Assembly (NCBI GenBank): GCA_964016885.1
Contig: CAXHJY010001577.1
Coordinates: 936-64,935, forward strand
Direction of reading: 5' to 3'
DNA length: 64,000 bases
Origin: Eledone cirrhosa
Lineage: Eukaryota
Position numbers and translations under genes: made by a program. Positions 3,866-59,525 of the stretch are shown one piece after another; the first letter of the stretch is position 1; each line of letters opens with the position of its first letter. Below the pieces are notes generated by a model, which searched no databases, was not told the origin of the DNA, and saw only the letters and a program-made list of their open reading frames with translations.

Positions 3866-4551
3866 TAGCTTCTTGCTAAAACAATCTCTATACGTCTCAT
3901 TTATATTTATACTCGGATTCTTTTCCTAGAGTGCTTAAACTATCTGTGACTAATCCCGGTTTTTTCATAAAAACTGTGATAATTATTGCTATTTTGCTGA
4001 ACTCGTTGTAGAGTTTTTTTCAGAATGTATTTGACTGCTATTTCTTGTAAATAAACATTCACTTCCATCCTGACGTCACTAGCCCCGTTTTTTTCCTCAT
4101 GTGCTTTTTCATAAATACACATGAAGGCGAACTAGCCAGTTTTAGAATTCCCTTTTTCGGACTATATTACTGTGAGAGCCCTGGTTTTCTGTTGAGCTCT
4201 GCTGATGAATGATATTCCAACCGTGACCATCTCCACTGAAAGTTTTCATGAAATAGTCTTTTAAGACTATACAGAGCATTTGATGTTATTCCAAATTGAA
4301 GGATAAGTGTTTCAAACTTTGTTTTATCATGAGTTAAAAGGTCTATAGATTTTTTTTCTTTTTTTTTCTTCTCTTTCCCATGGATTTTACTAAATTCTGT
4401 GGATGAATTTGTATCCTGATTCTCTTTTGAGATGAGTTTGAGTTATTTTTCCTAAATCTTTCGTTAACTACTTTTCCCATCTTGACGTTATAGTCGCATA
4501 TATGTTATAGAATGCCGTTAGCTTCTTGCTAAAACAATCTCTATACGTCTC

Positions 4552-4556
<5 letters not shown>
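3866..4556 (+). mobile_element. Non-coding HHR element family B, ~650-nt unit plus ~38-nt terminal direct repeat
   Basis: TAGCTTCTTGCTAAAACAATCTCTATACGTCTCATTTA at both ends; flanked by (TA)n; homologous to 15612-16273. Confidence 0.8.
4196..4277 (+). ncRNA. Type I hammerhead ribozyme, family B
   Basis: GCTCTG-CTGATGA-ATGA...TCAT-GAAA-TAGTCTT TT AAGACTA-TA-CAGAGC: 6-bp stem I, intact core, 7-bp hairpin stem III. Confidence 0.88.
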
Positions 4557-4590
<34 letters not shown>

Positions 4591-4591
4591 T

Positions 4592-4679
<88 letters not shown>

Positions 4680-5311
4680 ATAAATGAGACGTATAGAGAT
4701 TGTTTTAGCAAGAAGCTAACGGCATTCTATAACATATATGCGACTATAACGTCAAGATGGGAAAAGTAGTTAACGAAAGATTTAGGAAAAATAACTCAAA
4801 CTCATCTCAAAAGAGAATCAGGATACAAATTCATCCACAGAATTTAGTAAAATCCATGGAAAAAATCTATAGACCTTTAACTCATGATAAAACAAAGTTT
4901 GAAACACTTATCCTTCAATTTGGAATAACATCAAATGCTCTGTATAGTCTTAAAAGACTATTTCATGAAAACTTTCAGTGGAGATGGTCACGGTTGGAAT
5001 ATCATTCATCAGCAGAGCTCAACAGAAAACCAGGGCTCTCACAGTAATATAGTCCGAAAAAGGGAATTCTAAAACTGGCTAGTTCGCCTTCATGTGTATT
5101 TATGAAAAAGCACATGAGGAAAAAACGGGGCTAGTGACGTCAGGATGGAAGTGAATGTTTATTTACAAGAAATAGCAGTCAAATACATTCTGAAAAAAAC
5201 TCTACAACGAGTTCAGCAAAATAGCAATAATTATCACAGTTTATGAAAAAACCGGGAGTTAGTTCTAGCATGATCAGTTTTAAGAACGTATAGAGATTGT
5301 TAGAAGAAGCT
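4680..5311 (-). mobile_element. Inverted copy of family B element (HHR at 4937-5018)
   Basis: Reverse complement of 3866-4556; noisy after ~5255. Confidence 0.85.
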
Positions 5312-5312
5312 A

Positions 5313-5348
5313 TTATATATATATATATTAGACTATAGAATTTTTAGC

Positions 5349-7018: not shown

Positions 7019-7085
<67 letters not shown>
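5313..7085. repeat. (TA)n microsatellite
   Basis: Direct inspection. Confidence 0.98.
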
Positions 7086-7086
<1 letters not shown>

Positions 7087-9470
7087 ATAATTAATATCTA
7101 GTAACATATATATACATACAGATGCATATCAATGCTAGCAAATATATAGGTTTTGTCTTAGTAACTATGTGGTTCAATGCATGGGGTTGCAGAACATTAA
7201 TATGAGAGACGTAAAATAAGAAAATTACAAAATTAACTTACTTACTAAAATATCACTTCCAACTAATTAGATTCTGGAATGGAATAAATATATTTTCCGA
7301 AGAAAACATGCAGAATCATTCCGTCGTCAGGGAAGTCTATTCTCATCTAAGTATCCAGGCAAAGTGTGGACTCTGAAACTTATTAAAAAATAATTCAGTG
7401 GATAGAAAATAGCAAAGCGTGGACTGAATTCCTAGCCATAGAGAAAATCGCTGCCTCTGAGTCGGTGGCAAATTCAAAAAGAATCAATCACGTGACATCG
7501 AGGTCAATCAGTGGAAAGTGGTTTGCTAATAAGACAGCGGCATGCCTGCTACCATAGCAGCAGTCATGGCCAATATTGCTCGACAAATAATTTGGAGATA
7601 ATTATAAAGAATTAATATCTAGTAACATATATATACATACAGATGCATATCAATGCTAGCAAATATATAGATTTTGTCTTAGTAACTTTGTGGTTCAACG
7701 CATGGGGTTGCAGAACAATAATATGAGAGACGTAAAATAAGAAAATTATAAAATTAACTTACTTACTAAAATATCACTTCAACTAATTAGTTTCTGGAAT
7801 GGAATAAATATATTTTCCGAAGAAAACAAAGAGAATCATTCCGTCGTCAGGGAAGACTATTCTCATCTAAGTATCCAGGGAAAGCGTGGAATCTGGAAAC
7901 TTATTAATAAAATAATGCAGTGGATAGAAAATAGCAAAGCGTGGACTGAATTCCTAGCCATAGAGAAAATCACTGCCTCTGCGTCGGTGGCAAATTCAAA
8001 AAGAATCAATCACGTGACATCGAGGTCAATCAGTGGAAAGTGGTTTGCTAATAAGACAGCGGCCTGCCTGCTACCATAGCAGCAGTCATGGCCAATATTG
8101 CTCGACAAATAATTTGGAGATAATTATAAAGAATTAATATCGAGTAACATATATATACATACAGATGCATATCAATGCTAGCATATATATAGGTTTTGTC
8201 TTAGTAACTTTGTGGTTCAATGCATGGGGTTGCAGAACAATAATATGAGAGACGTAAAATAAGAAAATTATAAAATTAACTTACTTACTAAAATATCACT
8301 TCCAACTAATTAGTTTTTGGAATGGAATAAATATATTTCCGAAGAAAACATGCAGAATCATTCCGTCGTCAGGGAAGTCTATTCTCATCTAAGTATCCAG
8401 GCAAAGTGTGGACTCTGGAAACTTATTAAAAAATAATTCAGTGGATAGAAAATAGCAAAGCGTGGACTGAATTCCTAGCCATAGAGAAAATCGCTGCCTC
8501 TGAGTCGGTGGCAAATTCAAAAAGAATCAATCACGTGACATCGAGGTCAATCAGTGGAAAGTGGTTTGCTAATAAGACAGCGGCCTGCCTGCTACCATAG
8601 CAGCAGTCATGGCCAATATTGCTCGACAAATAATTTGGAGATAATTATAAAGAATTAATATCTAGTAACATATATATACATACAGATGCATATCAATGCT
8701 AGCAAATATATAGATTTTGTCTTACTAACTTTGTGGTTCAACGCATGGGGTTGCAGAACAATAATATGAGAGACGTAAAATAAGAAAATTATAAAATTAA
8801 CTTACTTACTAAAATATCACTTCCAACTAATTAGTTTCTGGAATGGAATAAATATATTTTCCGAAGAAAACAAAGAGAATCATTCCGTCGTCAGGGAAGA
8901 CTATTCTCATCTAAGTATCCAGGGAAAGCGTGGAATCTGGAAACTTATTAATAAAATAATGCAGTGGATAGAAAATAGCAAAGCGTGGACTGAATTCCTA
9001 GCCATAGAGAAAATCACTGCCTCTGCGTCGGTGGCAAATTCAAAAAGAATCAATCACGTGACATCGAGGTCAATCAGTGGAAAGTGGTTTGCTAATAAGA
9101 CAGCGGCCTGCCTGCTACCATAGCAGCAGTCATGGCCAATATTGCTCGACAAATAATTTGGAGATAATTATAAAGAATTAATATCGAGTAACATATATAT
9201 ACATACAGATGCATATCAATGCTAGCATATATATAGGTTTTGTCTTAGTAACTTTGTGGTTCAATGCATGGGGTTGCAGAACAATAATATGAGAGACGTA
9301 AAATAAGAAAATTATAAAATTAACTTACTTACTAAAATATCACTTCCAACTAATTAGTTTTTGGAATGGAATAAATATATTTTCCAAAGAAAACATGGAG
9401 AATCATTCCGTCGTCAGGGAAGTCTATTCTCATCTAAGTATCCAGGCAAAGCGTGGACTCTGGAAACTTA
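7086..9470 (-). repeat. Family A ~522-bp tandem array, antisense, ~4.6 copies
   Basis: Reverse complement of the unit; first HHR at 7255-7336; two variants alternate. Confidence 0.97.
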
Positions 9471-9475
9471 TAGCA

Positions 9476-10486
9476 AACCACAAAGTTACTAAGACAAAAC
9501 CTATATATTTGCTAGCATTGATATGCATCTGTATGTATATATATGTTACTAGATATTAATTCTTTATAATTATCTCCAAATTATTTGTCGAGCAATATTG
9601 GCCATAACTCCTGCTATGGTAGCAGGCAGGCCGCTGTCTTATTAGCAAACCACTTTCCACTGATTGACCTCGATGTCACGTGATTGATTCTTTTTGAATT
9701 TGCCACCGACGACGAGGCAGTGATTTCTTCTATGGCTAGGAATTCAGTCCACGCTTTGCTATTTTCTATCCACTGAATTATTTTTTAATATGTTTCCAGA
9801 GTCCACGCTTTGCCTGCATACTTAGATGAGAATAGTCTTCCCTGACGACGGAATGATTCTCCATGCTCTCTTCGGAAAATATATTTATTCCATTCCAGAA
9901 ACTAATTAGTTGGAAGTGATAATTTAGTAAGTAAGTTAATTTTGTAATTTTCTTATTTTACGTCTCTCATATTATTGTTCTGCAACCCCATGCATTGAAC
10001 CACAAAGTTACTAAGACAGAACCTATATATTTGCTAGCATTGATATGCATCTGTATGTATATATATATGTTACTAGATATTAATTCTTTATAATTAACTC
10101 CAAATTATTTGTCGAGCAATATTGGCCATGACTGCTGCTATGGTAGCAGGCAGGCCGCTGTCTTATTAGCAAACCACTTTCCACTGATTGACCTCGATGT
10201 CACGTGATTGATTCTTTTTGAATTTGCCACCGACGCAGAGGCAGCGATTTTCTCTATGGCTAGGAATTCAGTCCACGCTTTGCTATTTTCTATCCACTGA
10301 ATTATTTTTTAATAAGTTTCCAGAGTTCACGCTTTGCCTGGATACTTAGATGAGAATAGTCTTCCCTGACGACGGAATGATTCTCCATATTTTCTTCGGA
10401 AAATATATTTATTCCATTCCAGAAACTAATTAGTTGGAAGTGATATTTTAGTAAGTAAGTTAATTTTATAATTTTCTTATTTTACG

Positions 10487-10496
<10 letters not shown>
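9476..10496 (+). repeat. Family A array, sense, ~2 copies, joined head-to-head to the preceding array
   Basis: Orientation switch at GGAAACTTA-TAGC-AAACCACAAAG; ends TTACGTCTCTCATAT into (TA)n. Confidence 0.95.
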
Positions 10497-10528
<32 letters not shown>

Positions 10529-10631
10529 GGTGGCTACCAACTCGTTTTCGAGTCGGCCACTATTTTATATCCATGTAGGAGAACCCCTACCGATGCGCTG
10601 AACAACTGACTTTTTCGTCAAACCAGCGACT

Positions 10632-11036
10632 TGTCCTCTCAACAACCATTATCTTGAAAAAAACTTAGTCTACGAATGTAAAGTTATAACTGACACCAAT
10701 TCCTTTACTTATTTTGGTTCCACTTCCACCTCCTTTAAAGCTTGTCTTTATAATCATCATTCGTCTTTTAAATACCCACTTAAAAGAACCAACACGGCAC
10801 TCTCAGAACTCGCATGGTCCTTGAAAGACAAAAATATTAACTATAACATCTCTTGGAAGAAGGTTTGTTCTGCTTCTTCATACTTGAATAGTTCTCTATC
10901 CAAGACATGCAATCTTTGTTTATGTGAAAATTTTACCATTATATCTAACTTAGATTCTATAATAAATAGACGCACTGACTTGTTTTCTCTCTGCTTGCAT
11001 AAATTCCATAGAACATTCCATAAAGTATACATCTAA
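10632..11036 (+). pseudogene. GIY-YIG endonuclease 3' remnant of a Penelope-like element (Naiad-like)
   Basis: Manual translation CPLNNHYLEKNLVYEC...YFGSTSTSFK...NHHSSF...ALSELAWSLKD continuing into the listed ORF (ISWK...CNLCLCE...INRR...CLH). Confidence 0.85.
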
Positions 11037-13032: not shown

Positions 13033-14257
13033 TCTATACTATAAAGCTCACTGCCATATGTAGGTAACAAACTATCCGCCAAACGGCTGGACCAAACAGC
13101 ACCAAATTTGCACCATAGATGTAACTTTTTCTGAATAAATAAGTGATGGTATTGTTGCTTACGGAATTTTGTTAAAAGATTAAAGACATTATTTAAATAT
13201 TCACTTCTTTAAAATTTCACATGTCAACACTTCCGGTTATACGTCATTCCTCACTTTTTTTATGACGTCGCACAGCATTCCTCTATTTTTCTTAGTCTGT
13301 ATGACTGGCTGTCTGCATTAGATAACATTTTTCGAAGTATTTACTTCTGCGTTCACAGACTGATTTTTTCAGTTTCAGAAGATCCCGTTAAGGGTGAAAG
13401 CAGCGATTCTTTGCTTAAACTTTTATCTTTTATTTTAATATATATATTCGTGTACAGATATTTTTTGCATACACAAAAACAAAAGCCTATTTATTTCACG
13501 AAAGCACAGAAGGCTTATCTTCATTGTTACTGTTCGAGGTTAGAAGACCACAATCTTTCCAAGATCTGAGAACCATCAATGGCCATCAATGTTCAACTTA
13601 CCGTTTGGCTTGCCAGATGCGTGGTATGTTACACAATGGCAGCCAGTGGCATCTCACCCTGCAAGAAGCAGCAACTTCTAAAGTCCCTTCTCAGCTGCGA
13701 AAACTGTTATGTTATTATTTTGCACAACTGTGATCTCGCCGACCCTCTCGAGATGTGGAACAACCACCGCGAAAGTCTAACTGAAGACATCCTCCACCGT
13801 ACACGCAGACACAATCCGAACGTAACATACGATATCGTTTCCAACGAGGCGCTCATTTGTCTTGAAAACAGTGTCCTGGAGTTTGGTGGTAGGCCTCTAG
13901 GTCACTACAGCTTATCTGCTTCTGACAGGAGTGTCCAGAATTGAACGTCTACAGAGCTTCCCCGTGAGACGAGCTACGAAATCAGTGATTCTCCCATGGT
14001 CAATTGTATGTAGGATGCTCTAGGGTTAGCTCGCCAAACAATCTCTTCATCTTTGCTCCGGAGTTCCGAACAAAAAATATTGTATACTTTGACGCTCTAA
14101 CAGTGTAATTTAAATATTTTCTGTTACTTGGAATTTCCATTATGGTTGTACAAATTATTGTTTGTTAAAATATGTGTCCTGTTGACAGTTTATTGTTGTA
14201 ACTATCAATTTCCTTTAACGTACTGGCTGCTAGACTGGGGAATACCGGGCCAGCTAG
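13033..14257 (+). mobile_element. Internally deleted Helitron
   Basis: A|TC start, CTAG|T end after a short GC hairpin; Rep-Hel linker fragments (PQSFQDLRTING...YRLAC; DPLEMWNNHRESLTED) and a helicase C-terminal GQLYVGCSRV...KNIVY fragment near 13990-14090. Confidence 0.85.
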
Positions 14258-14272
14258 TATATATATATATAT

Positions 14273-15034
14273 AGTAGAGCCAGATTTGATAGTACACAGG
14301 TATACTATATTTGATTCCAGGCATCTATTCTTTAGTGGGCATTTATCCGGTAGGTGGCAGTTACACTTGGAGGCCTTCCTGTGTGCAGGTTTCCCGTTGC
14401 GGTTCTGTATGTTGTTAGGGGCGGGATGGGATTTAGGTTTACTAGTGTTTTGTTTTGATGTGCCCAGGCGTGCGGACGGTTGTGATGCTGTTATGTGTTT
14501 GCGTTTTGTATTTGGTGCTACGGTGTATGTTGGTAGATTACATTATTTAGAAATTCTTTTATAGTTGATTTTATGTATGTGTGATTCTATATTAGCTGCA
14601 GTAGAGTAAGAGAGTTTGATAGTTTTTCTGTTAAAGATTCTATGGTATTTGTGTAGTTTAGGGAAGTGCTTGTCGATTAATTTAAAGAATTTAGGAGGTT
14701 GGGTGGTTTTTAAGGAAGAGTTGAAAATTGGATTGAACCTTAAATGTTTCCTACCTTGGGGTTTTCTGGAGTTTCTAGAGATCAACATAGTGGTTGGTTT
14801 GGCTATTTCGTGTGTCTGTTGCCTATTTCTATGTTTAGTTCTATATTTGTTACTCCTGTAGGTTCGGGTGGTGCAGTTGTCGTTAGGTTTGTATTTGTAG
14901 TTGCTGTCTCTATCGGGTATGTATTTGAGCCCTTCCTTGTGGCCTGCCTTACATAAAGCTATAACTTCGATTACTACTATCATCAGTGACCGTATTTTTT
15001 TATTATTTTTTATTATTGTTGTTATTGTTTTCAT
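14273..15034 (-). pseudogene. Naiad-like Penelope fragment (RT thumb end, linker, Cys-rich motif, start of GIY-YIG)
   Basis: RFNPIFNSSLKT...FFKLIDKHFP...IFNRKTIKLSYS; manual translation downstream CNCHLPDKCPLKNRCLESNIVY. Confidence 0.85.
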
Positions 15035-15615: not shown

Positions 15616-16269
15616 GGAATACTGTTGGCTTTTCGCTACAATGTTTTCTATACCTTTCATTTAGATATTTATACTCGCATTTCTTTCCTAGAGTGCTTAA
15701 ATTATTTGTGACTAATCCCGGTATTTTTTAATAAAAAACCGCGATAATATTGCTTTTTGCTGAACTCCTTATTGTAGAGTTTTTTTCGTAATGTTTTTTT
15801 GACTGTTGTTTCTTGTAAACAAACATTCGTCTCATTCTGACGTCACCAGCCCTGTCTTTCCACATGTGCGTTTTATTTTTCATAATCACGCATGATGGTG
15901 AACTAGCCTGTTTTTAAATTACCTTTTTGGCATATAAATCTGTGAGAATCTTGGTTATCGAGTTGAGCTCTGCTGAGGATCGAATTCCAACCGTGACCAT
16001 CTCCACTGAAAGTTTTCGTGAAATAGTCTTTAAGACTATACAGAGCATTTGAAGTTTTTCCAAATTGAAGGATGAGTATTTAAACTGTATTTTATCATGA
16101 GTTAAGGCTCTATTGATTTTTCCCTGGATTTCACTAAATTCTGTGGATGAATCTATATCCTGATTCTCTTTGAGATGAGTTTGAACTATTTTTCCCATTT
16201 TGACGCTATAGTCACTTATATAATATGGAATACTGTTGGCTTTTCGCTACAATGTTTTCTATACCTTTC

Positions 16270-16273
<4 letters not shown>
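15612..16273 (+). mobile_element. Family B element, second subfamily; HHR at 15967-16046
   Basis: ~50-nt terminal direct repeat TATGGAATACTGTTGGC...CTTTCATTT; GCTCTG-CTGAGGA...GAAA-TAGTCTTTAAGACTA-TA-CAGAGC. Confidence 0.82.
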
Positions 16274-16349
<76 letters not shown>

Positions 16350-21059: not shown

Positions 21060-21784
21060 ATAAACGGAAAAAATGAAACGAAATTTTATTTCTCACACTT
21101 AGTACGGCTGTTATTTAAATATAAGTATGTATACGTAGATACATATATTTATACAGACGTACAGTAGTATGTATATATATATACATACATGCACACACAT
21201 ATATATATGTACGTATGGATTCACCGAACATTTATTATAATGCTCGGTGTGTTTAAACAAACAACTCGAATTAAGCCGTACAGTGTCTAGCCACCATCGT
21301 TGCTCATTTGTTCAAAACTGACAAAGGAACGCTGTACTAGTTTCAAGCTTATTAGCTATCGTCAGCAACGTATACCTTCCTGCCAGATGGTTGAACGTCT
21401 GAAAGTATATACTTTCCTTATGCATATTAACGGCTGAGCAGCCTAATTTGCATATCGAGTGAGTTAATCGGCCGGGGTACCGAAAACGATAAACGGAAAA
21501 AATGAAACGAAATTTCATTTCTCACTGATAGTACGGCTGTTACTTAAATATAAGTATGTATACGTACATAAATATATGTATACAGACGTACAGTAGTATG
21601 TATATATACATACATATATGTACGTATGGATTCACCGAACATTTATTATAATGCTCGGTGTGTTTGTAAACAAACAACCCGAATTAAGCCGTACAGTGTC
21701 TAGCAACCAATGTTGCTCATTTGTTCAAAACTGACAAAGGAACGCTGTACTAGTTTCAAGCTTATTAGCTATCGTCAGCAACGT
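21060..21784 (-). repeat. Family F HHR tandem repeat, ~413-430-nt unit, ~1.7 copies; HHRs at 21329-21371 and 21742-21784
   Basis: Minus strand ACGTTG-CTGACGA-TAGCTAATAAGCTT-GAAA-CTAG-TA-CAGCGT occurs twice, 413 nt apart. Confidence 0.85.
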
Positions 21785-24700
21785 ATCCACTGAATTATTT
21801 TTTAATAAGTTTCCAGAGTTCTCGCTTTGCCTGGAAACTTAGACGAGAATAGACTTCCCTGACGACGGAATGTTTCTCAGTATCTTACTCCATTCCAGAA
21901 ACTAATTAGTTGGAAGTGATATTTTAGTAAGTAAGTTAATTTTATAATTTTCTTATTTTACGTCTCTCATATTATTGTTCTGCAACCCCATGCATTGAAA
22001 CACAAAGTTACTAAAACAAAACCTATATATTTGCTAGCATTGATATGCATCTGTATGTATATATATGTTACTAGATATTAATTCTTTATAATTATCTCCA
22101 AATTATTTGTCGAGCAATATTGGCCATGACTGCTGCTATGGTAGTAGGCAGGCCGCTGTCTTATTAGCAAACCACTTTCCACTGATTGACCTCTATGTCA
22201 CGTGTTTGATTCTCTTTAAATTTGCCACAGACGCAGAGGCAGTGATTTTCTCAATGGCTAGGAATTCAGTCCACGCTTTGCTATTTCCTATCCACTGAAT
22301 TATTTTTTAATAAGTTTCCAGAGTCCTCGCTTTGCCTGGAAACTTAGACGAGAATAGACTTCCCTGACGACGGAATGTTTCTCAATATCTTCTTCGGAAA
22401 ATATATTTACTCGATTCCAGAAACTAATTAGTTGGAAGTGATATTTTAGTAAGTAAGTTAATTTTATAATTTTCTTATTTTACGTCTCTCATATTATTGT
22501 TCTGCAACCCCATGCATTGAACCACAAAGTTACTAAGACAAAACCTATATATTTGCTAGCATTGATATGCATCTGTATGTATATATATGTTACTAGATAT
22601 TAATTCTTTATAATTATCTCCAAATTATTTGTCGAACAATATTGGCCATGACTGCTGCTATGGTAGTAGGCAGGCCGCTGTCTTGTAAGCAAACCACTTT
22701 CCACTGATTGACCTCGATGTCACGTGTTTGATTCTCTTTGAATTTGCCACAGACGCAGTGATTTTCTCAATGGCTAGGAATTCAGTCCACGCTTTGCTAT
22801 TTCCTATCCACTGAATTATTTTTTAATAAGTTTCCAGAGTCCTCGCTTTGCCTGGAAACTTAGACGAGAATAGACTTCCCTGACGACGGAATGTTTCTCA
22901 ATATCTTCTTCGGAAAATATATTTACTCGATTCCAGAAACTAATTAGTTGGAAGTGATATTTTAGTAAGTAAGTTAATTTTATAATTTTCTTATTTTACG
23001 TCTCTCATATTATTGTTCTGCAACCCCATGCATTGAACCACAAAGTTACTAAGACAAAACCTATATATTTGCTAGCATTGATATGCATCTGTATGTATAT
23101 ATATGTTACTAGATATTAATTCTTTATAATTATCTCCAAATTATTTGTCGAACAATATTGGCCATGACTGCTGCTATGGTAGTAGGCAGTCCGCTGTCTT
23201 GTAAGCAAACCACTTTCAACTGATTGACCTCGATGTCACGTGTTTGATTCTCTTTAAATTTGCCACAGACGCAGAGGCAGTGATTTTCTCAATGGCTAGG
23301 AATTCAGTCCACGCTTTGCTATTTCCTATCCACTGAATTATTTTTTAATAAGTTTCCAGAGTCCTCGCTTTGCCTGGAAACTTAGACGAGAATAGACTTC
23401 CCTGACGACGGAATGTTTCTCAATATCTTCTTCGGAAAATATATTTACTCGATTCCAGAAACTAATTAGTTGGAAGTGATATATTAGTAAGTAAGTTAAT
23501 TTTATAATTTTCTTATTTTACGTCTCTCATATTATTGTTCTGCAACCCCATGCATTGAACCACAAAGTTACTAAGACAAAACCTATATATTTGCTAGCAT
23601 TGATATGCATCTGTATGTATATATATGTTACTAGATATTAATTCTTTATAATTATCTCCAAATTATTTGTCGAACAATATTGGCCATGACTGCTGCTATG
23701 GTAGTAGGCAGGCCGCTGTCTTGTAAGCAAACCACTTTCCACTGATTGACCTCGATGTCACGTGTTTGATTCTCTTTGAATTTGCCACAGACGCAGTGAT
23801 TTTCTCAATGGCTAGAAATTCAGTCCACGCTTTGCTATTTCCTATCCACTGAATTATTTTTTAATAAGTTTCCAGAGTCCTCGCTTTGCCTGGAAACTTA
23901 GACGAGAATAGACTTCCCTGACGACGGAATGTTTCTCAATATCTTCTTCGGAAAATATATTTACTCGATTCCAGAAACTAATTAGTTGGAAGTGATATTT
24001 TAGTAAGTAAGTTAATTTTATAATTTTCTTATTTTACGTCTCTCATATTATTGTTCTGCAACCCCATGCATTGAACCACAAAGTTACTAAGACAAAACCT
24101 ATATATTTGCTAGCATTGATATGCATCTGTATGTATATATATGTTACTAGATATTAATTCTTTATAATTATCTCCAAATTATTTGTCGAACAATATTGGC
24201 CATGACTGCTGCTATGGTAGTAGGCAGGCCGCTGTCTTGTAAGCAAACCACTTTCCACTGATTGACCTCGATGTCACGTGTTTGATTCTCTTTGAATTTG
24301 CCACAGACGCAGTGATTTTCTCAATGGCTAGAAATTCAGTCCACGCTTTGCTATTTCCTATCCACTGAATTATTTTTTAATAAGTTTCCAGAGTCCTCGC
24401 TTTGCCTGGAAACTTAGACGAGAATAGACTTCCCTGACGACGGAATGTTTCTCAATATCTTCTTCGGAAAATATATTTACTCGATTCCAGAAACTAATTA
24501 GTTGGAAGTGATATTTTAGTAAGTAAGTTAATTTTATAATTTTCTTATTTTACGTCTCTCATATTATTGTTCTGCAACCCCATGCATTGAACCACAAAGT
24601 TACTAAGACAAAACCTATATATTTGCTAGCATTGATATGCATCTGTATGTATATATATGTTACTAGATATTAATTCTTTATAATTATCTCCAAATTATTT

Positions 24701-25581
24701 GTCGAACAATATTGGCCATGACTGCTGCTATGGTAGTAGGCAGGCCGCTGTCTTGTAAGCAAACCACTTTCCACTGATTGACCTCGATGTCACGTGTTTG
24801 ATTCTCTTTGAATTTGCCACAGACGCAGTGATTTTCTCAATGGCTAGAAATTCAGTCCACGCTTTGCTATTTCCTATCCACTGAATTATTTTTTAATAAG
24901 TTTCCAGAGTCCTCGCTTTGCCTGGAAACTTAGACGAGAATAGACTTCCCTGACGACGGAATGTTTCTCAATATCTTCTTCGGAAAATATATTTACTCGA
25001 TTCCAGAAACTAATTAGTTGGAAGTGATATTTTAGTAAGTAAGTTAATTTTATAATTTTCTTATTTTACGTCTCTCATATTATTGTTCTGCAACCCCATG
25101 CATTGAACCACAAAGTTACTAAGACAAAACCTATATATTTGCTAGCATTGATATGCATCTGTATGTATATATATGTTACTAGATATTAATTCTTTATAAT
25201 TATCTCCAAATTATTTGTCGAACAATATTGGCCATGACTGCTGCTATGGTAGTAGGCAGGCCGCTGTCTTGTAAGCAAACCACTTTCAACTGATTGACCT
25301 CGATGTCACGTGTTTGATTCTCTTTGAATTTGCCACAGACGCAGAGGCAGTGATTTTCTCAATGGCTAGGAATTCAGTCCACGCTTTGCTATTTCCTATC
25401 CACTGAATTATTTTTTAATAAGTTTCCAGAGTCCTCGCTTTGCCTGGAAACTTAGACAAGAATAGATTTCCTTGACGACGGAATGTTTCTCTATATCTTC
25501 TTCGGAAAATATATTTACTTCATTCCAGAAACTAATTAGTTGGAAGTGATATTTTAGTAAGTAAGTTAATTTTATAATTTT
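21785..25581 (+). repeat. Family A tandem array, ~7.3 copies of 516/522 bp
   Basis: Unit starts at 22093, 22615, 23131, 23653, 24169, 24685 and 25201; HHR e.g. 22358-22439. Confidence 0.97.
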
Positions 25582-25598
25582 CTTATTTTACGTTTCTC

Positions 25599-25858
<260 letters not shown>

Positions 25859-27642: not shown

Positions 27643-29925
27643 CTATTGGGGTGATAACCCGTTTAGTTTTGGTTTAAATTTGTTAAGGAATAGATTTTCT
27701 TTGTTTATTCTTTGTTGTTGTGTGAACGAATCTGAGCACTTGTAGAAGGGGAAGATTTTAAAGTTGGGTAGTGTCATTCCTGCGCAGTTCGCAATATGGC
27801 TGCTCAAGGGGATTTTTCTTGTGTTAGCGTCCCGGATTTGTTGGCGGTGGATGGTCATTCTTTTGCGTAATGAGGTGCCCGTCTGTCCTATGTAGTTGTG
27901 TTTGCACCCACCGCAAGTTATTGCGTAAATCAAGTTCTCCGAGTTGCAGGTGAAATTGTTTTTTACTGTAAATGTTTGGCCATCTTTGAATGTAAATGTT
28001 TGTCCTTCAGTGAGGTAGAGGCACGTTCCACAGTTTGTTCTACCACATTTGGTAACTGTAGGGTTGAGGATTGGTTTGGGTATATTTGGTCCAGTGAGAA
28101 TGCGTTTAAGTGATTTGGGTTGTCTTTTACTTTTAAGGATCTTGTGTGTTTCAAGAATAGACTTAATTTTTACATCTTTAAGTAGGATGGGGAGGTTTTT
28201 GTGTAGGTGATCAAACATTTCGGTATTTCTGGGGTTGAAAGTGGATACATATGGCAGGGTGTTGAGTGTGGTTTTCTGTTTTGGATTGTTAAGTTGATGG
28301 GGATTTAGGTGTTTTGCCCTGTCTATTCCATTGTTGATTATTTCAAGTGGAAAGGCTCTTAAGATAAGGGTGTCTTTTAGTTCCTTTAGTCTTTGCTCCC
28401 GTTTAGGTGGATCTGATACTATGGTACATATACGTTTGGCCAAATTGTAAGGAATGTTAAGTTTTGTATGTTTTGGGTGACTTGATGTGAAAAAGAGGTA
28501 TTGCTTGGAATCTGTGGGTTTATAGAATATATCTGTATCTAATTTCCCGTCTATTACAGAGATGAGAATATCCAAGAAGGCTAATTCCTTAGGATTGGAT
28601 TCCATTGTGAATTGTATGTTATTATCTATGTTGTTTATCATGTTTTTAAACGTAGTAAGTGAGTTCATGTCTTCTTGCCATAGGATAAAGCAGTCGTCTA
28701 GATATCTTTTCCAATTGGCTTTGAGGTGTGTGTGGAAAGAGTCTCCAAATAAGAGAAGGGACTGACTGTATATTTGTTGTTCATGGAATCCCATGACTAG
28801 GTTGGCATATGTGGGTGCTACTTTCGTGCCCATTGCCGTACCTGATACTTGTCTGTATGTTGAACCATTGAATGTGAAGTAGTTATTTTGTAGGATAAAG
28901 CGGAGTCCGTCAGTGATAAAATCTGTGTTGATGCGTGTCGGTATTTCTGATGGGTGTGTGTTAAGCCAGTATTGGACTGCTGTTATTCCATAGTTGTGAG
29001 GTATGTTTGTGTAGAGGTTTATTACGTCAAAGGAGACAAGAATTGTATTTGCACTTACTGTTTTAGGGAGGTGTTTCAGCATGTCAAGGTCATCTCGTAT
29101 GTAGCTCTGTATATGTTGTAGAAAGGGTTTCAGTAGGATGTCCAGAAAGTTGCTAAGTCTGTGGGTTTCACATGTAGGGCCTGCTATAATTGGCCTGAGT
29201 TTTAGGTCTTCTGGTGGTGTTAGTTCAATGTAATTGTTGGTTGAGGTGTCACATGCATCGTTTATGGGTTTACATTTGTGAAGTTTCGGTAAGCCATAAA
29301 AAGAGCTTGTATTGCATTTGAAGTGGCTTATATAGTTAAACTCTTTTGTGGTTAAGCTGTTGCGGTATTTATTCAGTAAGGTCAAAAGGTTCCCCATTGT
29401 TTTGGTGTGTTTGTAGTTTTCTGTTTTTTCATAGTATGTGTTGTTTTCTAAAATGTTAAGTGCGAGGGTCCTATAGTAGTCCGTATTCATAATCACAACA
29501 GTACTGCCTTTATCGACTTCTTTGATAGTTATCTCAGGGTTGTTTCTAAGTGTGAATAATTCTTCCCATTCGTGTGTAGATAGGTTTGATTTCGTGTGTT
29601 TATTTGTAATTTTTTCATAGGGAAAGTTGGTGATGTGTTCGCAGTACGTGTCCAGTGCTTTATTTCTTCCCTTTTGTGGGCAGAAATTGCTTTTATTTCT
29701 AACCAGTGATTCGTCTTCAGTGTTGGTGTCGTTGTGGAAGAATTCCGTTAGTCGCAGCTTTCGGCAGTATTCCATGATGTCATCCTTCATTTCGGGGAAG
29801 TTTGGTTTACGTGGTGTAGGTGTAAATTTCAGGCCCTTACTTAAAATGTTGATTTGTGTGTTGGTTAGAGGTGTCTTTGAGAGGTTGATTATTTTTGGTT
29901 TCTCCTGAGGGGGGGGGGGGGCCAT
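27643..29925 (-). CDS. PLE reverse transcriptase plus GIY-YIG endonuclease (760 aa, uninterrupted)
   Basis: [70 protein letters not shown]; CGRTNCGTC linker; LIYAITC..C...YIGQT. Confidence 0.96.
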
Positions 29926-31023
29926 CGAGTATCCTGGTATTTCAGGCTTTTCCCTAAAAAAGGAATGTAGTTTTGTGTGTGATTATATTTTGTTGGTCTG
30001 TTGCGTGTGGGTCTGTAGCTTGTTGTTTCATGAGGGTGAATGTGATGGTGGGGGTGGTATGTGTTGTGGTTGTTGATGAGCAAGGGTTCTGTTGTTGGTT
30101 CATGTGGTCTGGGTGCGTTATTTCTGTGGTACAGAGTGTTGAGGCTGGGGGGTTGTCTTTTGTTGGATTGAGGGTGATGTCTGGTGTGGTTGTGGGTAAG
30201 TTCTGTTGTGATTTCAAGTGGCCTGGGTGGATTTCTTCTGAGGAATGTGGTGTGTGTGTTGTGAGTTGGATCTATGTTATTTCGTCGTTGGTTTATGTAG
30301 GGGGCATTTCTACGGAAACCTGTGTTGTGGTGGTTGGGTGTGTTTCTTTTGGTGTAGTTGGCCGTATTTGGTTTGTGTTGGTGGGGGATGTGCCTGTGGT
30401 TAGTGTGTGTTGGGTTTGGTGGTGTAAATGTGTCTGTTGTAGTTCTTGTTATGTTCAAATGCTTTATAAAGGGGTTACCTGTTTGGTGCGTCCTTTTAAA
30501 GTCTTCTTCATATTTGAGGAACCAGTTTTCGGATTTTTCCCACCGTTTAAGGGAAATAGTTTCTGCATTCTCGCAGTCCTGTTTCCACGATTTGATTAAA
30601 TTTTGTAGGGTTGTTCCCTCGGCCTTTTTAGTGCATTCTTCCTCCATATTTTTATCAGTATCCTTATACACTTGCTCGTTTGAGGTGGCCCTTAATTTTA
30701 GGAGTTCTATTTCCATGTTTATACTGTTGAGTGACATTTGTTCACGGAGTTTTCTTTCTGGTTCAGGTTCGTTTGTAATATGCTTTATTTGGAATTTACG
30801 TGGTAAAACTATCGGTGTTGAGTTAATCCATTTTTGGTAAATTCCAGCTTTGTTGAGGTTTTTTATCATATTCCAGAAAGTGAATTTTCTGGTTTTTAGA
30901 TGTTTTTTCCAGAGGTGTCCCATTTGGTTTTTGATATGGAGCAATGTCGTTTGTTCTGTGTTGGTATTCATAAGTTTTTCGATGGAGTTGCATACGTTTT
31001 GAACGTTTAAATAAATTTGGTTG
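29889..31023 (-). CDS. PLE upstream ORF1 (helical region, then H/N/P/T/R-rich low-complexity tail), overlapping ORF2; first non-repeat Met at 30971
   Basis: Non-microsatellite part of the 641-aa ORF; LPRKFQ motif; ends ...PFLGKS... Confidence 0.75.
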
Positions 31024-32837: not shown

Positions 32838-33178
32838 CAACAACTATATCAACAACTATATCAACAACTATAGAATATATGTATATATATATATATACAT
32901 ATATATACATATTTATAGAATATATGTATATATATATATATACATATATATACATATTTATATACATATTTCCTCTCCCAATCAGCATAATCAACCACAC
33001 AAAAAACCAATTAAACCACGCTATAGGATTAAAAGACACCTATGAAGAAATAATAGATAAATAAACGACAGCTATCTATTCGCGATCAACAACTATAGAA
33101 TATTTACCCAGTATTTCTAATAGCACGTGGAAATCAATTAAATATATCGTCAACCATACACATATATATATATATATA

Positions 33179-34730
33179 TGAATATAGACATAGAATATTC
33201 GAAAATATTCTGTATGTTTATAATAAACATTTTGAAGACCTAATCGCTATAGAATAGAATACGTCACGTATTACAATTAGATTCTCGATAAAAGCAAGGG
33301 AAGTAATCTACGCGTTTCATTCTCGTTAGAAATCATCAGGACTACATATCCAGTGCTTTTATCGAGAATGACACAGCTAGAGACTTATAGAATACTTAGC
33401 TGTGTACAGGAACTGGTTTGAAAGAGCGGTTGCCGGTCCGGCAGAAATTAGAAATTGGAATAAATGCTCTGAAATAGCGATATATATGTGAATATAGACA
33501 TAGAATATTCGAAAATATTCTGTATGTTTATAATAAACATTTTGAAGACCTAATCGCTATAGAATAGAATACGTCACGTATTACAATTAGATTCTCGATA
33601 AAAGCAAGGGAAGTAATCTACGCGTTTCATTCTCGTTAGAAATCATCAGGACTACATATCCAGTGCTTTTATCGAGAATGACACAGCTAGAGACTTATAG
33701 AATACTTAGCTGTGTACAGGAACTGGTTTGAAAGAGCGGTTGCCGGTCCGGCAGAAATTAGAAATTGGAATAAATGCTCTGAAATAGCGATATATATGTG
33801 AATATAGACATAGAATATTCGAAAATATTCTGTATGTTTATAATAAACATTTTGAAGACCTAATCGCTATAGAATAGAATACGTCACGTATTACAATTAG
33901 ATTCTCGATAAAAGCAAGGGAAGTAATCTACGCGTTTCATTCTCGTTAGAAATCATCAGGACTACATATCCAGTGCTTTTATCGAGAATGACACAGCTAG
34001 AGACTTATAGAATACTTAGCTGTGTACATGAACTGGTTTGAAAGAGCGGTTGCCGGTCCGGCAGAAATTAGAAATTGGAATAAATGCTCTGAAATAGCGA
34101 TATATATGTGAATATAGACATAGAATATTCGAAAATATTCTGTATGTTTATAATAAACATTTTGAAGACCTAATCGCTATAGAATAGAATACGTCACGTA
34201 TTACAATTAGATTCTCGATAAAAGCAAGGGAAGTAATCTACGCGTTTCATTCTCGTTAGAAATCATCAGGACTACATATCCAGTGCTTTTATCGAGAATG
34301 ACACAGCTAGAGACTTATAGAATACTTAGCTGTGTACAGGAACTGGTTTGAAAGAGCGGTTGCCGGTCCGGCAGAAATTAGAAATTGGAATAAATGCTCT
34401 GAAATAGCGATATATATGTGAATATAGACATAGAATATTCGAAAATATTCTGTATGTTTATAATAAACATTTTGAAGACCTAATCGCTATAGAATAGAAT
34501 ACGTCACGTATTACAATTAGATTCTCGATAAAAGCAAGGGAAGTAATCTACGCGTTTCATTCTCGTTAGAAATCATCAGGACTACATATCCAGTGCTTTT
34601 ATCGAGAATGACACAGCTAGAGACTTATAGAATACTTAGCTGTGTACAGGAACTGGTTTGAAAGAGCGGTTGCCGGTCCGGCAGAAATTAGAAATTGGAA
34701 TAAATGCTCTGAAATAGCGATATATATGTG
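33179..34730 (-). repeat. Family H 310-bp HHR tandem array, 5 copies; HHRs at 33303-33345 and every +310
   Basis: AATATAGACA at 33181, 33491, 33801, 34111 and 34421; one substitution seen (34029). Confidence 0.98.
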
Positions 34731-35789
34731 AATACGTGACGTATTCTATTCTATAGCGATTAGGTCTTCAAAATGTTTATTATAAACATACAGAATATTT
34801 TCGAATATTCTATGTCTATATTCACATATATATCGCTATTTCAGAGCATTTATTCCAATTTCTAATTTCTGCCGGACCGGCAACCGCTCTTTCAAACCAG
34901 TTCCTGTACACAGCTAAGTATTCTATAAGTCTCTAGCTGTGTCATTCTCGATAAAAGCACTGGATATGTAGTCCTGATGATTTCTAACGAGAATGAAACG
35001 CGTAGATTACTTCCCTTGCTTTTATCGAGAATCTAATTGTAATACGTGACGTATTCTATTCTATAGCGATTAGGTCTTCAAAATGTTTATTATAAACATA
35101 CAGAATATTTTCGAATATTCTATGTCTATATTCACATATATATCGCTATTTCAGAGCATTTATTCCAATTTCTAATTTCTGCCGGACCGGCAACCGCTCT
35201 TTCAAACCAGTTCCTGTACACAGCTAAGTATTCTATAAGTCTCTAGCTGTGTCATTCTCGATAAAAGCACTGGATATGTAGTCCTGATGATTTCTAACGA
35301 GAATGAAACGCGTAGATTACTTCCCTTGCTTTTATCGAGAATCTAATTGTAATACGTGACGTATTCTATTCTATAGCGATTAGGTCTTCAAAATGTTTAT
35401 TATAAACATACAGAATATTTTCGAATATTCTATGTCTATATTCACATATATATCGCTATTTCAGAGCATTTATTCCAATTTCTAATTTCTGCCGGACCGG
35501 CAACCGCTCTTTCAAACCAGTTCCTGTACACAGCTAAGTATTCTATAAGTCTCTAGCTGTGTCATTCTCGATAAAAGCACTGGATATGTAGTCCTGATGA
35601 TTTCTAACGAGAATGAAACGCGTAGATTACTTCCCTTGCTTTTATCGAGAATCTAATTGTAATACGTGACGTATTCTATTCTATAGCGATTAGGTCTTCA
35701 AAATGTTTATTATAAACATACAGAATATTTTCGAATATTCTATGTCTATATTCACATATATATCGCTATTTCAGAGCATTTATTCCAAT
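34731..35789 (+). repeat. Family H 310-bp array, sense, ~3.4 copies
   Basis: AATACGTGAC at 34731, 35041, 35351 and 35661; reverse complement of the preceding array. Confidence 0.98.
34968..35010 (+). ncRNA. Minimal type I hammerhead, family H (also 35278-35320, 35588-35630)
   Basis: GTAGTC-CTGATGA-TTTCTAACGAGAAT-GAAA-CGCG-TA-GATTAC; palindromic ACGCGT stem III; GUA triplet. Confidence 0.9.
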
Positions 35790-36870: not shown

Positions 36871-39420
36871 TCATCCCTTGAGGAGTGTAAGCAAAAATCC
36901 ATTCCTGCTCCCTGCGTGGGAACAGGCAACATAAAGTTGGCCATGGGAGAAGCATGGCTCCCCCAAATGGATGCCCGCCACCGACAATGTTTGCCCTTGT
37001 GATTTGTTAATGGACATGGCAAAACATGGTCTCACCGGGAATTGGGATCGCCGGAAATCGAACTGGATATCTGACGCCGAGGGGAAAAAGTTCATACTTG
37101 GAATGAAAACATTCTCCCCTCCCGCGTACCCCGTTACAACGGTGGCCTCAATCAAGTGGGGCGTCAGTGACTTGACGACCATGCGAGTACCGTTGCACTG
37201 CTTTGGTGGACGCAAGTTCCTTATTAGAATAATGGGACAGCCAACCCTAAGCTTAAGAATGTGAGGTGGGAGCCCTGGGGGCTCAAGGGAATTTAATAAC
37301 TTAACCGGATAATTAACGATATCGTCGAGGTCTGACGTCCGGTAGATACATTTGAAGATGTGTTCTTTACCGGGAAACTTCTCAATCAACTGCTCCTTAA
37401 TAAAATTAACCATGGTATTTTTCGGAGCAAGGATGTCTCTTTGGCTGAGCCAATCGAGGTTTTTAAATTTAGATGAGACATTAGGAAAAAACTGCTTCCC
37501 AAAGGTCAGAAGGGCTGCTCACAATGTTGCACAAGGAGTCGATTGCTATGCATCCGCAGGGACCTTGCCCTCACCAAGTGCTAAAATATTCTGAGCAAAT
37601 GCTGCAGACATGTTGTGACCATGCAAATGAGCACGCATATTTGTGCTCAGGTACAAACTCTTCACCTAGAGCCACAACATGCACGGCTTAAGGCAGGCAT
37701 GCACTTCATCCGCTCTTGTCCCTTTGGGTAAGACCGGCAGCGTTTGCCGAAAATCCCCTGATAGCAGAAGGGTTACGCCACCCATAGGAGCCGTAGAATC
37801 CCTAATGTCTTTCAGGGTCCTGTCCAAAGCCTCAAGGGCACCCTTGTGTGCCATTGTGCACTCATCCCAAACAATGAGACAACATTTTTTGAGAACCAGA
37901 GCTTCGTGTGAACTCTTGCTGATATTGCATGTTGGTGTCTCAGTTTTTACTAAATCCAAGAGGTGTTTAAAGGTTGAATGTGATGTCCTGCCTCCCGGCA
38001 ACAAAGTAGCAGCGATCCCGTACGATGCAACGGTCAACGCAATTTTTTTCTCCTGTCGAATCTTAGTGAGAATCCATTTCGTTACAAAAGTTTTTCCGGT
38101 ACCCCCAGATTTTGAAATCTGATTTTGAACCGCGTCAATGATAGTTAAATAGGCCAACCTTTGGTCCGACAGAAGTTTCGGCTCATTTTCCTCTAAGTAT
38201 TGGGGAAGAGATTCGATGTCATATGCTGTTTCCCGCAACAAATCCGGGGCCAACGTGTTAGCTTCCTCTCTGACGGTTGACGGCAAGCCCTACGTCGCCA
38301 ACTCACTCCCACCCATGTCGAGGAGAGCGTCCTCGATATCAATGAGTGCCCTGTTGTAGATAATGTCGCTGTAACCAACTTCCACTGAAGTATACTGCAG
38401 ATGAGCCAGGCGCAGGAAGTCCTCAGACATGAAGTCTCTGTACTTGACCCATAAAGATTTGGGATCACCCAATTCACATTTTTGAAGCAAAATGGCAAAG
38501 AGTTCCCGAAGACCTTTAGGTGATTTCAACAGAGCACCCTCTGCTAAAGTGGAATCCCATTGCGAACCAAAAGACCACGCTTAAAGCAGGCTTCCCGGTA
38601 CGTATCACATATTTCTCCATCAACAATTTTGAGGTCCTGAAAACTTTGTGGGCCTACAACTTCATGCAGAAGAAGGCGGAGATGAAAGCAGTCATGCTGA
38701 CTTGGGGGCACAGTGTAAACCCTTCCAAGACAGCTGTCAAATTTTACACCAGGATGTCTTTCAGCAGCCTTACCTGACTTTCTTCGCACCCGAATGTTTT
38801 TCGACCATATAAAGTAGGATGGAACCTGGGAGTACACAATTGTTTGCGCAAATGTATCGAACTGGCAAAGTTTGAAGAAACCCGTCAGAGTGGTCTCTTT
38901 CGCATCCGCGGCCAACTTGACGGCGGTTTGGTCCGTAAAGTAAACCCTTTGCCCATTTTCCAAATGTACCGCAAGCTGTACGATGGCGGGGTGACGTTGT
39001 TGTAGGGGTAAACCAAATAGTCGCCAAAAAGCTTCATTGCTACTGATGTACCTCCCCGCCATGTAATCTGTGATCTCGTCCCTGCTATTTTCAGTTTGAA
39101 ATGAGAACATTGCGGCATCAGAGCCCTTATTTACATATTTGCATATTTATTTTATCGACTTGACCGAGATGCAAAACTCAACGTTGATGTGGGCGTTGAA
39201 CATCTTCAAGAGAAGCGGGCAATAAGGGACCACCCATCTATTGTCGACTTGACCTCCCCTTACTGTTGTGGTGAAGCCACCGTTCTCGGGCCGTCTCCGC
39301 CTGTACAGGGGGTACCCGTCCCCACCAGTCTGAGTCTGGTCAACAAATTTTTTTGGGTATCCCTTACCGCAATGACATTAAATTTGGTAACGGATTAATT
39401 CAGACCTGCCAACCTCTAAA
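36871..39420 (-). pseudogene. Helitron Rep/PIF1-like helicase, broken by frameshifts and stops
   Basis: GYPLYRRR, VDNRWVVPY, HINVE, KYVNKGSD, RYISSNEAFWR, GGTGKTF, GGRTSHS, WDECTM, GDFRQTLPV, QFPVRPCFAMSINKSQGQT, HGQLYVACS. Confidence 0.93.
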
Positions 39421-41987: not shown

Positions 41988-42682
41988 GATCAAAGTTTTT
42001 TTCGTCGCACATCTGCAACATCATCAGTGGTACTATTATGTTTCCCCCCATTGTATTGTATTGTAATGTCTACGCCATTTTAATTTTATTTTAAATTAAA
42101 ATAAATCTGTGTTTATCTCTCTTTATTATATTGAATTATATTACACGGCTCGGAAAATGTTTTCCTTGAGTTATTTTAATGGTAAGGGACTTTACTGAGT
42201 TTCTAACTCAATATATACTTTGATAATTATGGCTCCTTGAATTTTGTAGAGCTTAATAATTATCCCGTGAACCAGGCCGCTATTTTTAGCAGTATACGTA
42301 TTTTACGAGAGACGCTAGGTTCTGGATGCCACGTGTATTATTCTAAACGCGCATTTCATCTAGTCTTCTCGGAAACTTAGAATGTGAAGGGTCAGCTAAT
42401 TTTTTTACATCCACTGAAGAGCAGAAGAATTGGTAAACAATTTTCTTGATGGGAAACAATTTTACCGAAGACTGTCTGGATGTTCGATAGTTATCACAAT
42501 CGATTTGTTTTTCTTAATTTTTCTTTTAATTGAGTCTGGCGGACCGTATTATTTATAGTTAATATACTTTTCACCCTAGCGAATCTGGTCCCCTATAATT
42601 TGAACACGGATGTGTTGATCTCTCTTTATTATATTGAATTATATATATATATATTTATATATATATATATATATATACATAT

Positions 42683-49158: not shown

Positions 49159-49209
49159 AGATTCTACAGGACTAGAACTGTTTCATTCTTTAGAAATCAT
49201 CAGGAATCT
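49159..49209 (-). ncRNA. Hammerhead family I (single copy)
   Basis: AGATTC-CTGATGA-TTTCTAAAGAAT-GAAA-CAG TTCTAGTC CTG-TA-GAATCT. Confidence 0.85.
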
Positions 49210-54062: not shown

Positions 54063-56097
<2,035 letters not shown>

Positions 56098-59249: not shown

Positions 59250-59525
59250 GCGTAGGCATACAATACAACAGGAGGAAACATAATAGCATCACTGACGATG
59301 TTGCAGATGTGCAACGAAAGAATTTGTTAGACTATACATATATGTGTTTGTGTCTATATTATATCTGTATTGTTGACCGTTGGTCAGTCAATGGTAACAT
59401 TGAGGACCGAATAAATTAAATGAACCGATATAAAAGACACAGAAGCGAAAACCAACCAAACAGTGAGTGTGTTCTGTTATTAATTCTGGCAATATTATTA
59501 CACAAATATAACAAGTATAACAATA
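59250..59525 (+). repeat. Dispersed repeat with degenerate HHR (59288-59328); antisense relative at 41780-42075
   Basis: CTGACGA-TGTTGC AGATGT GCAAC-GAAA; stems I and III decayed. Confidence 0.55.

Follow-up and report, generated by a model that had tools for sequence, protein, structure and literature searches.

A stretch of 64,000 nucleotides, hereafter the window, holds an array of nearly invariant 310-nt units in inverted arrangement on a small contig (C1604). The locus raises the question of what kind of element places near-identical copies of so short a sequence head-to-head, and from which template such copies would be made. Comparisons with published systems refer to the portions of the cited papers that were available.

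Structure of the 310-nt array and its hammerhead

Exact mapping resolved the array into 8.44 head-to-head units (5.02 + 3.42), while TRF returned two period-310 blocks at 33170-34734 (5.0 copies) and 34731-35789 (3.4 copies). Unit numbering starts at 35005, the first base after the predicted cut. The 3' ends of both arms point outward into short TA runs. The features placed on the window were as follows:

33162..33178, no strand: (TA)n target, left side
33179..34734, minus strand: left arm, 5.02 units, 1556 nt (exact mapping, TRF); its outer (3') end is unit base 130, the putative 'short' RT start, within the AUAUAUAU run
33281..34609, minus strand: five predicted hammerhead domains, with cores beginning at 33339, 33649, 33959, 34269 and 34579
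34029, minus strand: single substitution of the whole array, unit base 210 (exact mapping)
34731..34734, no strand: head-to-head junction with a 4-nt microhomology or overlap, left-arm base 125 being joined to right-arm base 37
34731..35789, plus strand: right arm, 3.42 units, 1059 nt (exact mapping, TRF); its outer (3') end is unit base 165, the putative 'long' RT start
34944..35032, plus strand: predicted type I hammerhead domain closed by a 16-bp clamp; core CUGAUGA at 34974, predicted cut at 35004/35005 (between GUA and GAUUAC)
35254..35342, plus strand: hammerhead domain, second copy on this strand
35564..35652, plus strand: hammerhead domain, third copy on this strand
35755..35789, plus strand: 35-nt 'tail', right end only, unit bases 131-165 (tail as in PMC8557442 and PMC11167929)
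35790..35803, no strand: (TA)n target, right side

A preliminary description of this DNA had counted about 8.4 inverted copies with one substitution, and the exact mapping agrees. The absence of an ORF was also claimed and is borne out, as no stop-free frame in the looped unit exceeds 59 aa. The GC content of the unit is 0.345.

Eight hammerhead cores lie in the array, three on the plus strand and five on the minus strand. The core pattern has 17 matches in the window compared to 0.48 expected, a number reached by 0 of 100 shuffles. In each unit CUGAUGA is followed by a helix II of 4 bp on a U-U pair, by GAAA, and by a helix III in which two pairs enclose a 2-nt palindromic loop. The 6-bp helix I continues via an internal loop into the 16-bp clamp, with pair probabilities near 1 for both. 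The pair probability of helix II is predicted at only ~0.15 in the monomer, and the helix III palindrome is predicted to form an intermolecular duplex of -9.5 kcal/mol, in line with the dimer hammerheads of PMC4209133. Given this value for helix II and the two-pair helix III, the hammerhead of the 310-nt monomer is probably a weak, dimer-dependent motif. Rfam detected no hammerhead in it, either at the gathering score or at E<=10. The core and the enclosing 16-bp stem named in the preliminary description are present in every unit; the canonical hammerhead claimed there is qualified by the weak predicted helix II and the Rfam result.

The two-pair helix III and the U-U pair at the base of helix II resemble the axolotl HHR_Amex2 (PMC7229834). 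A short palindromic helix III, implying activity as a dimer, is also a feature of the minimal hammerheads of Penelope-like elements (PLEs; PMC4209133). The 310-nt hammerhead is nevertheless nearer to the canonical type, with its 6-bp helix I plus 16-bp clamp and its 4-bp helix II, and unlike the minimal type of PMC4209133 it has no G10.1-C11.1 pair.

As the preliminary description had anticipated, the predicted folding energy of the unit is below that of shuffled controls, both as a linear molecule (z -3.33; 0 of 100 shuffles as good) and as a circle (z -4.17; 0 of 150 shuffles as good). The antisense strand folds at least as stably as the sense strand (z -4.81), so polarity is not given by folding alone. 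The hairpins that had been named are present in the sequence; ACACAGCTA and the ACGTGACGT-type hairpin do not recur at the same aligned columns in older relatives. The term 'viroid-like' describes the fold well enough, but nothing points to RNA-to-RNA replication, and the hammerhead core occurs on one polarity of the unit only, where a viroid or RNA replicon would have ribozymes in both.

A young, dispersed family and its older relatives

A 30-nt motif of the unit has 16,447 exact matches in the 3.0-Gb genome, and the hammerhead haplotype of the array has 4,033; the reversed control gave 0 in both cases. On the forward strand alone, end-junction patterns marked 777 long ends and 656 short ends (reverse-strand counts being inflated by repeat matches), so the family probably comprises well over a thousand insertions. 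A total of 94 loci with ~860 units were examined, all of them on contig C1 except the window array. The copies are ~99.9% identical, with a minor variant rate of 0.0008 per base.

Metazoan non-LTR retrozymes likewise form tandem arrays of low-GC units of ~300 nt, each with a single type I hammerhead and no ORF, in thousands of copies (PMC7229834; Li 2026). The 310-nt unit lies within ~150-450 nt, has a GC content below 45% and one core per unit, and is dispersed in many copies. At the level of sequence, the family is thus a non-LTR retrozyme, as first proposed; unit size, GC of 35%, type I hammerhead, lack of an ORF, dispersed arrays and covariation all speak for it. Expression and circles have been shown for known retrozymes.

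Older sister subfamilies of the unit occur at L033:4363-4725, at L119:3225-3590 and at L180-L209, and a 20-nt motif common to them has 4,544 matches in the genome. Their hammerhead helices are rewritten and show a U3-A8 core variant, and their long ends lie at approximately the same place. At L119, an insertion of the young family directly adjoins an inverted older-sister insertion at a single TA run.

The unit was aligned with relatives located beside family loci, nine sequences picked by eye for length, and RNAalifold recovered the three-helix junction from this alignment. In the hammerhead domain together with two hairpins, 20 of 44 pairs show changes on both sides; none of 500 shuffles attained this number, and slid controls yielded 2-7. 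The 44 pairs come from a prediction on the same alignment, which favors that structure. Core positions 3 and 8 covary perfectly, being C3-G8 in five sequences and U3-A8 in four of the nine, the latter a core variant described in PMC4209133. Within the young family, none of 30 locus-fixed variants falls in the 11 core positions, and at paired sites 9 of 13 such variants keep the pair (17% expected for random substitution, 51% for transition). These substitutions indicate that the hammerhead fold of the family is under selection; cleavage is a prediction.

The same variants offer a lead on RNA editing. A>G accounts for 9 of the 30 fixed sites and T>C for 3, as opposed to 7 and 14 among singletons (Fisher p 0.03), and 276A>G was found in seven loci on five backgrounds. 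Since U is the pairing partner at eight of the nine A>G sites, the excess is explained equally well if G-U pairs are tolerated, and A-to-I editing of the unit RNA is put forward as a lead only.

Insertion footprint and neighboring elements

Two-armed insertions make up 74 of the 94 loci, alongside 15 single, 3 complex and 2 cut or unclear ones, a count biased by the selection of most loci via end patterns. At two-armed loci, one outer end lies at unit base 128-139 and the other at ~163-172. In an unselected run of 18 consecutive loci, located by an internal motif, both end types were present at 14 (13 simple, 1 complex) and the remaining 4 were single, one of them adjoining an N run. Loci chosen by one end pattern had a short and a long end in 28 of 39 cases. 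The median TA fraction of flanks is 0.91, and nearly all of the first 10 loci, which were selected by hammerhead only, end in TA runs; inside such (TA)n flanks a target-site duplication is indistinguishable. More than one unit is present in 89% of 148 arms (median 3.4, up to 45 units), and in both multi-unit arms the outer ends are fixed and the inner ends random. A clustering of short-arm lengths at whole units among the first 10 loci disappeared with more loci (Rayleigh p 0.44).

PLE insertions are known to carry an inverted 5'-truncated copy and a 30-40 bp tail and to favor (TA)n or microsatellite targets (PMC8557442, PMC3846280). In vitro, a PLE protein cuts and extends both strands, and two internal starts bound the tail; hammerhead cleavage is unneeded, and unprocessed RNA is the main substrate (PMC11167929). 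An inverted truncated arm with a one-ended tail of 30-40 bp is present at 74 of the 94 loci and at 14 of the 18 unselected ones. By analogy, the inversion, which the preliminary description had correctly noted and left unexplained, is a Penelope-like insertion footprint with two internal RT starts and a ~35-nt tail. The short end of the 310-nt family lies in the AUAUAUAU run, which is able to pair with the target, whereas the starts in PMC11167929 are non-homologous. L1-type twin priming, with the first cDNA halting at the second primer, was not supported, given that 9 of 74 long-arm inner ends fall at bases 125-175 where 12 were expected.

EN+ PLEs share with the family head-to-head 5'-truncated arms, a ~35-nt tail at one end, two internal RT starts, AT-rich or (TA)n targets and a hammerhead in the repeat (PMC8557442, PMC11167929, PMC3846280). 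Unlike them, the 310-nt family has arms of up to 45 units, and an RT/GIY-YIG ORF is absent from the unit, which is therefore no autonomous PLE. Mobilization by PLEs and circular templates have both been proposed for retrozymes (PMC7229834, Li 2026). Taken together, we consider it very probable that the family is a retrozyme mobilized by a PLE. Both this type of element and this insertion footprint have precedents. In the available text of PMC7229834 and Li 2026, two-armed inverted insertions, fixed ends, a tail and (TA)n targeting are undescribed for retrozymes ('tail' and 'head-to-head' have 0 occurrences in that of Li 2026, and 'target site' has 0 in that of PMC7229834). The combination of a retrozyme with a two-armed, tailed insertion was not found in the literature surveyed, which covers subscription journals thinly and whose supplements might hold it.

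An open frame of 779 aa lies at 27643-29982 on the minus strand of the window. It contains an RT domain (Pfam RVT_1) and, by eye, a CX4CXXC linker and a GIY-YIG-like C-terminus, and was labeled Neptune-like after PMC8557442. Across its final 145 aa it has at least 150 matches in the genome with 100% identity, many of which lie in 777-aa frames, and it is a young PLE family located ~3 kb from the array. No hammerhead core is present in the 1.5 kb after the stop codon in 30 copies, and the 3' region is unrelated to the unit, so a partnership with the array is unsupported. A PLE fragment beside L048, 30% identical to this PLE and without similarity to the unit, was also set aside. The hammerhead pattern with an altered downstream context gave 25 matches, which proved to be 23 family variants with a one-base deletion and 2 rearranged family copies. 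Unit sequence shared with the pLTR of an autonomous PLE was not found in 30 of the 4,544 tail-motif loci either, these 30 being family members or sister subfamilies.

The window holds further repeats. A second tandem family, of ~520 nt, occupies 1-2084, 7080-10496 (also head-to-head) and 21796-25602, and carries a CUGACGA...GAAA motif as a candidate hammerhead. A 102-nt repeat at 54067-54329 (plus strand) and 49181-49203 (minus strand) has a type I hammerhead that is similar to that of the 310-nt unit in its core and helix II and differs in a longer helix III; the repeat also flanks L038, L092, L138 and L189. Two inverted copies of an element with a hammerhead core face a central TA run at 3950-5320, with a related copy at 15700-16280. 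More cores, of two other families, were found at 21341-21778 (minus), 42000-42027 (minus) and 59292-59319 (plus). PLE-endonuclease-like fragments were recognized by eye at 10602-11036 (plus), which has no Pfam match, and 14165-15034 (minus), and a broken Helitron-like stretch with PIF1 helicase domains lies at 36871-39146 (minus).

Template of the arrays

Circle-templated reverse transcription of retrozymes by PLE enzymes has been proposed, not shown, in PMC4209133 and PMC7229834. For the 310-nt family, such a cycle would begin with transcription of arrays into RNA, which the hammerheads would cut, probably as dimers paired via the helix III palindrome. Ligation of the monomer would rely on the clamp and helix I to keep its ends close. 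A PLE protein (RT/GIY-YIG) would then nick both strands of a (TA)n target, and each 3'-OH would prime RT at one of the two internal starts (bases 128-139 and ~163-172). Each RT would pass through several units before the two cDNAs are joined by microhomology. A single-unit template, read over and over, would give uniform arrays, and a minority of insertions would arise from uncut multi-unit transcripts.

Several patterns in the loci bear on the template. Of the 45 loci covered well enough, 43 carry one and the same haplotype in both arms, compared to a mean of 8.6 and a maximum of 17 in 5000 shuffles, which implies that the two arms derive from one RNA or one source. Apart from singletons, 79 of 91 loci are uniform. 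Among the 80 loci of at least three units there are 28 haplotypes, 21 of which occur once. At 12 loci, with the divergent L111 left out, a private substitution is present in every copy; private fixed changes include 210C>A, shared by 16 of 16 units at its locus, and a 2-nt deletion shared by 21 of 21. In a rough comparison, the rate of private fixation (0.15 per locus) is similar in magnitude to the probability of a minor variant in any one unit (0.24), which fits one single-unit bottleneck per generation. The cleavage site shows no enrichment of junction or inner ends (5 of 152, some of the five being alignment cut-offs, compared to 4.9 expected), and 721 crossings of that site show 2 minor variants where 4.5 were expected. 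Errors are not in excess at the junction, so end-to-end jumping on cut linear monomers is unsupported.

Other loci depart from this uniformity. When units are numbered inward from the outer ends, L068 and L120 have one minor variant in the matching unit of both arms, and at L134 the haplotype switches after the second unit in both arms. At L052 and L069 the arms share a variant in offset positions, and base 276 is mosaic at L078 and L146. Mirrored instances number 10 of 88 testable ones, all from two loci, L068 lying outside the counting threshold. A monomer circle does not predict mirrored, offset or mosaic variants, which need a multi-unit template or conversion between arms. The rolling-circle reverse transcription of a circular RNA assumed in the preliminary description would account for most loci, but not for the three that have mirrored variants.

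The main competing explanation keeps the family and the PLE enzyme and makes the uncut multi-unit read-through transcript, primed at two internal sites, the main template, with circles as by-products. It accounts for the variants mirrored or shared between arms at L068, L120, L134, L052 and L069, and it accords with a PLE RT that starts internally and favors unprocessed RNA in vitro (PMC11167929), as well as with a hammerhead that is predicted to be weak. In Xenopus, 8 of 9 retrozyme dimers were without cleavage (Li 2026, 10.64898/2026.07.22.740005). A multimer would explain equally well why the arms agree and why they do not end at the cleavage site. However, 78 of the 88 testable minor variants are non-mirrored (some being sequencing errors or later mutations), and both the private substitutions in all copies at 12 loci and the 21 unique haplotypes of 28 need a single-unit bottleneck. 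Further, an array cannot lengthen by copying a multimer, and the hammerhead core and helices are under selection. With the mirrored variants and the in vitro preference for uncut RNA (PMC11167929) weighed against it, we lean towards a monomeric RNA circle as the main template, with some multimer copying, and regard mainly multimeric templates as a lesser possibility.

Local expansion, whereby a PLE-derived monomer or short repeat was inserted and unequal exchange and conversion between arms then enlarged and homogenized it on site into satellite DNA, appears improbable. It echoes the local-amplification model in the Discussion of Li 2026, and conversion between arms could also yield mirrored variants. 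Long arms at L050, L052, L053 and L076+L077 show internal duplication and scattered variant repeats; in the 45-unit arm of L076+L077, variants recur at a 27-unit offset, which suggests a large internal duplication and post-insertion exchange. In long arrays with such exchange homogenization is possible. Against expansion in place as the general explanation, 89% of the 148 arms exceed one unit despite ~99.9% identity, outer ends are fixed and inner ends random with both arms multi-unit, and private variants are shared across the inversion. Lastly, palindromes can come from read chimeras, and the array sits on a small contig; an assembly or long-read fold-back artefact is nonetheless highly implausible, as an identical asymmetric end pair recurs at 74 loci, most of them on a 443-Mb contig, whose flanks differ and which have unequal arms, differing junction phases and locus-specific haplotypes.

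With the monomer circle as the favored main template, a bolder and decidedly tentative reading is that the arrays may record a dimeric PLE RT circling one 310-nt RNA circle from both ends of the break, with A-to-I edits fixed array-wide and a second route through uncut multimers. If true, over a thousand insertions would be legible as single-molecule traces of the PLE mechanism. With ~16,000 units, fixed starts and locus-specific haplotypes, this young family makes circle and multimer templates separable by genome-wide variant counts. The 310-nt unit is also a defined substrate for RT and cleavage assays, and a test bed for the copying of ribozyme repeats by PLEs.
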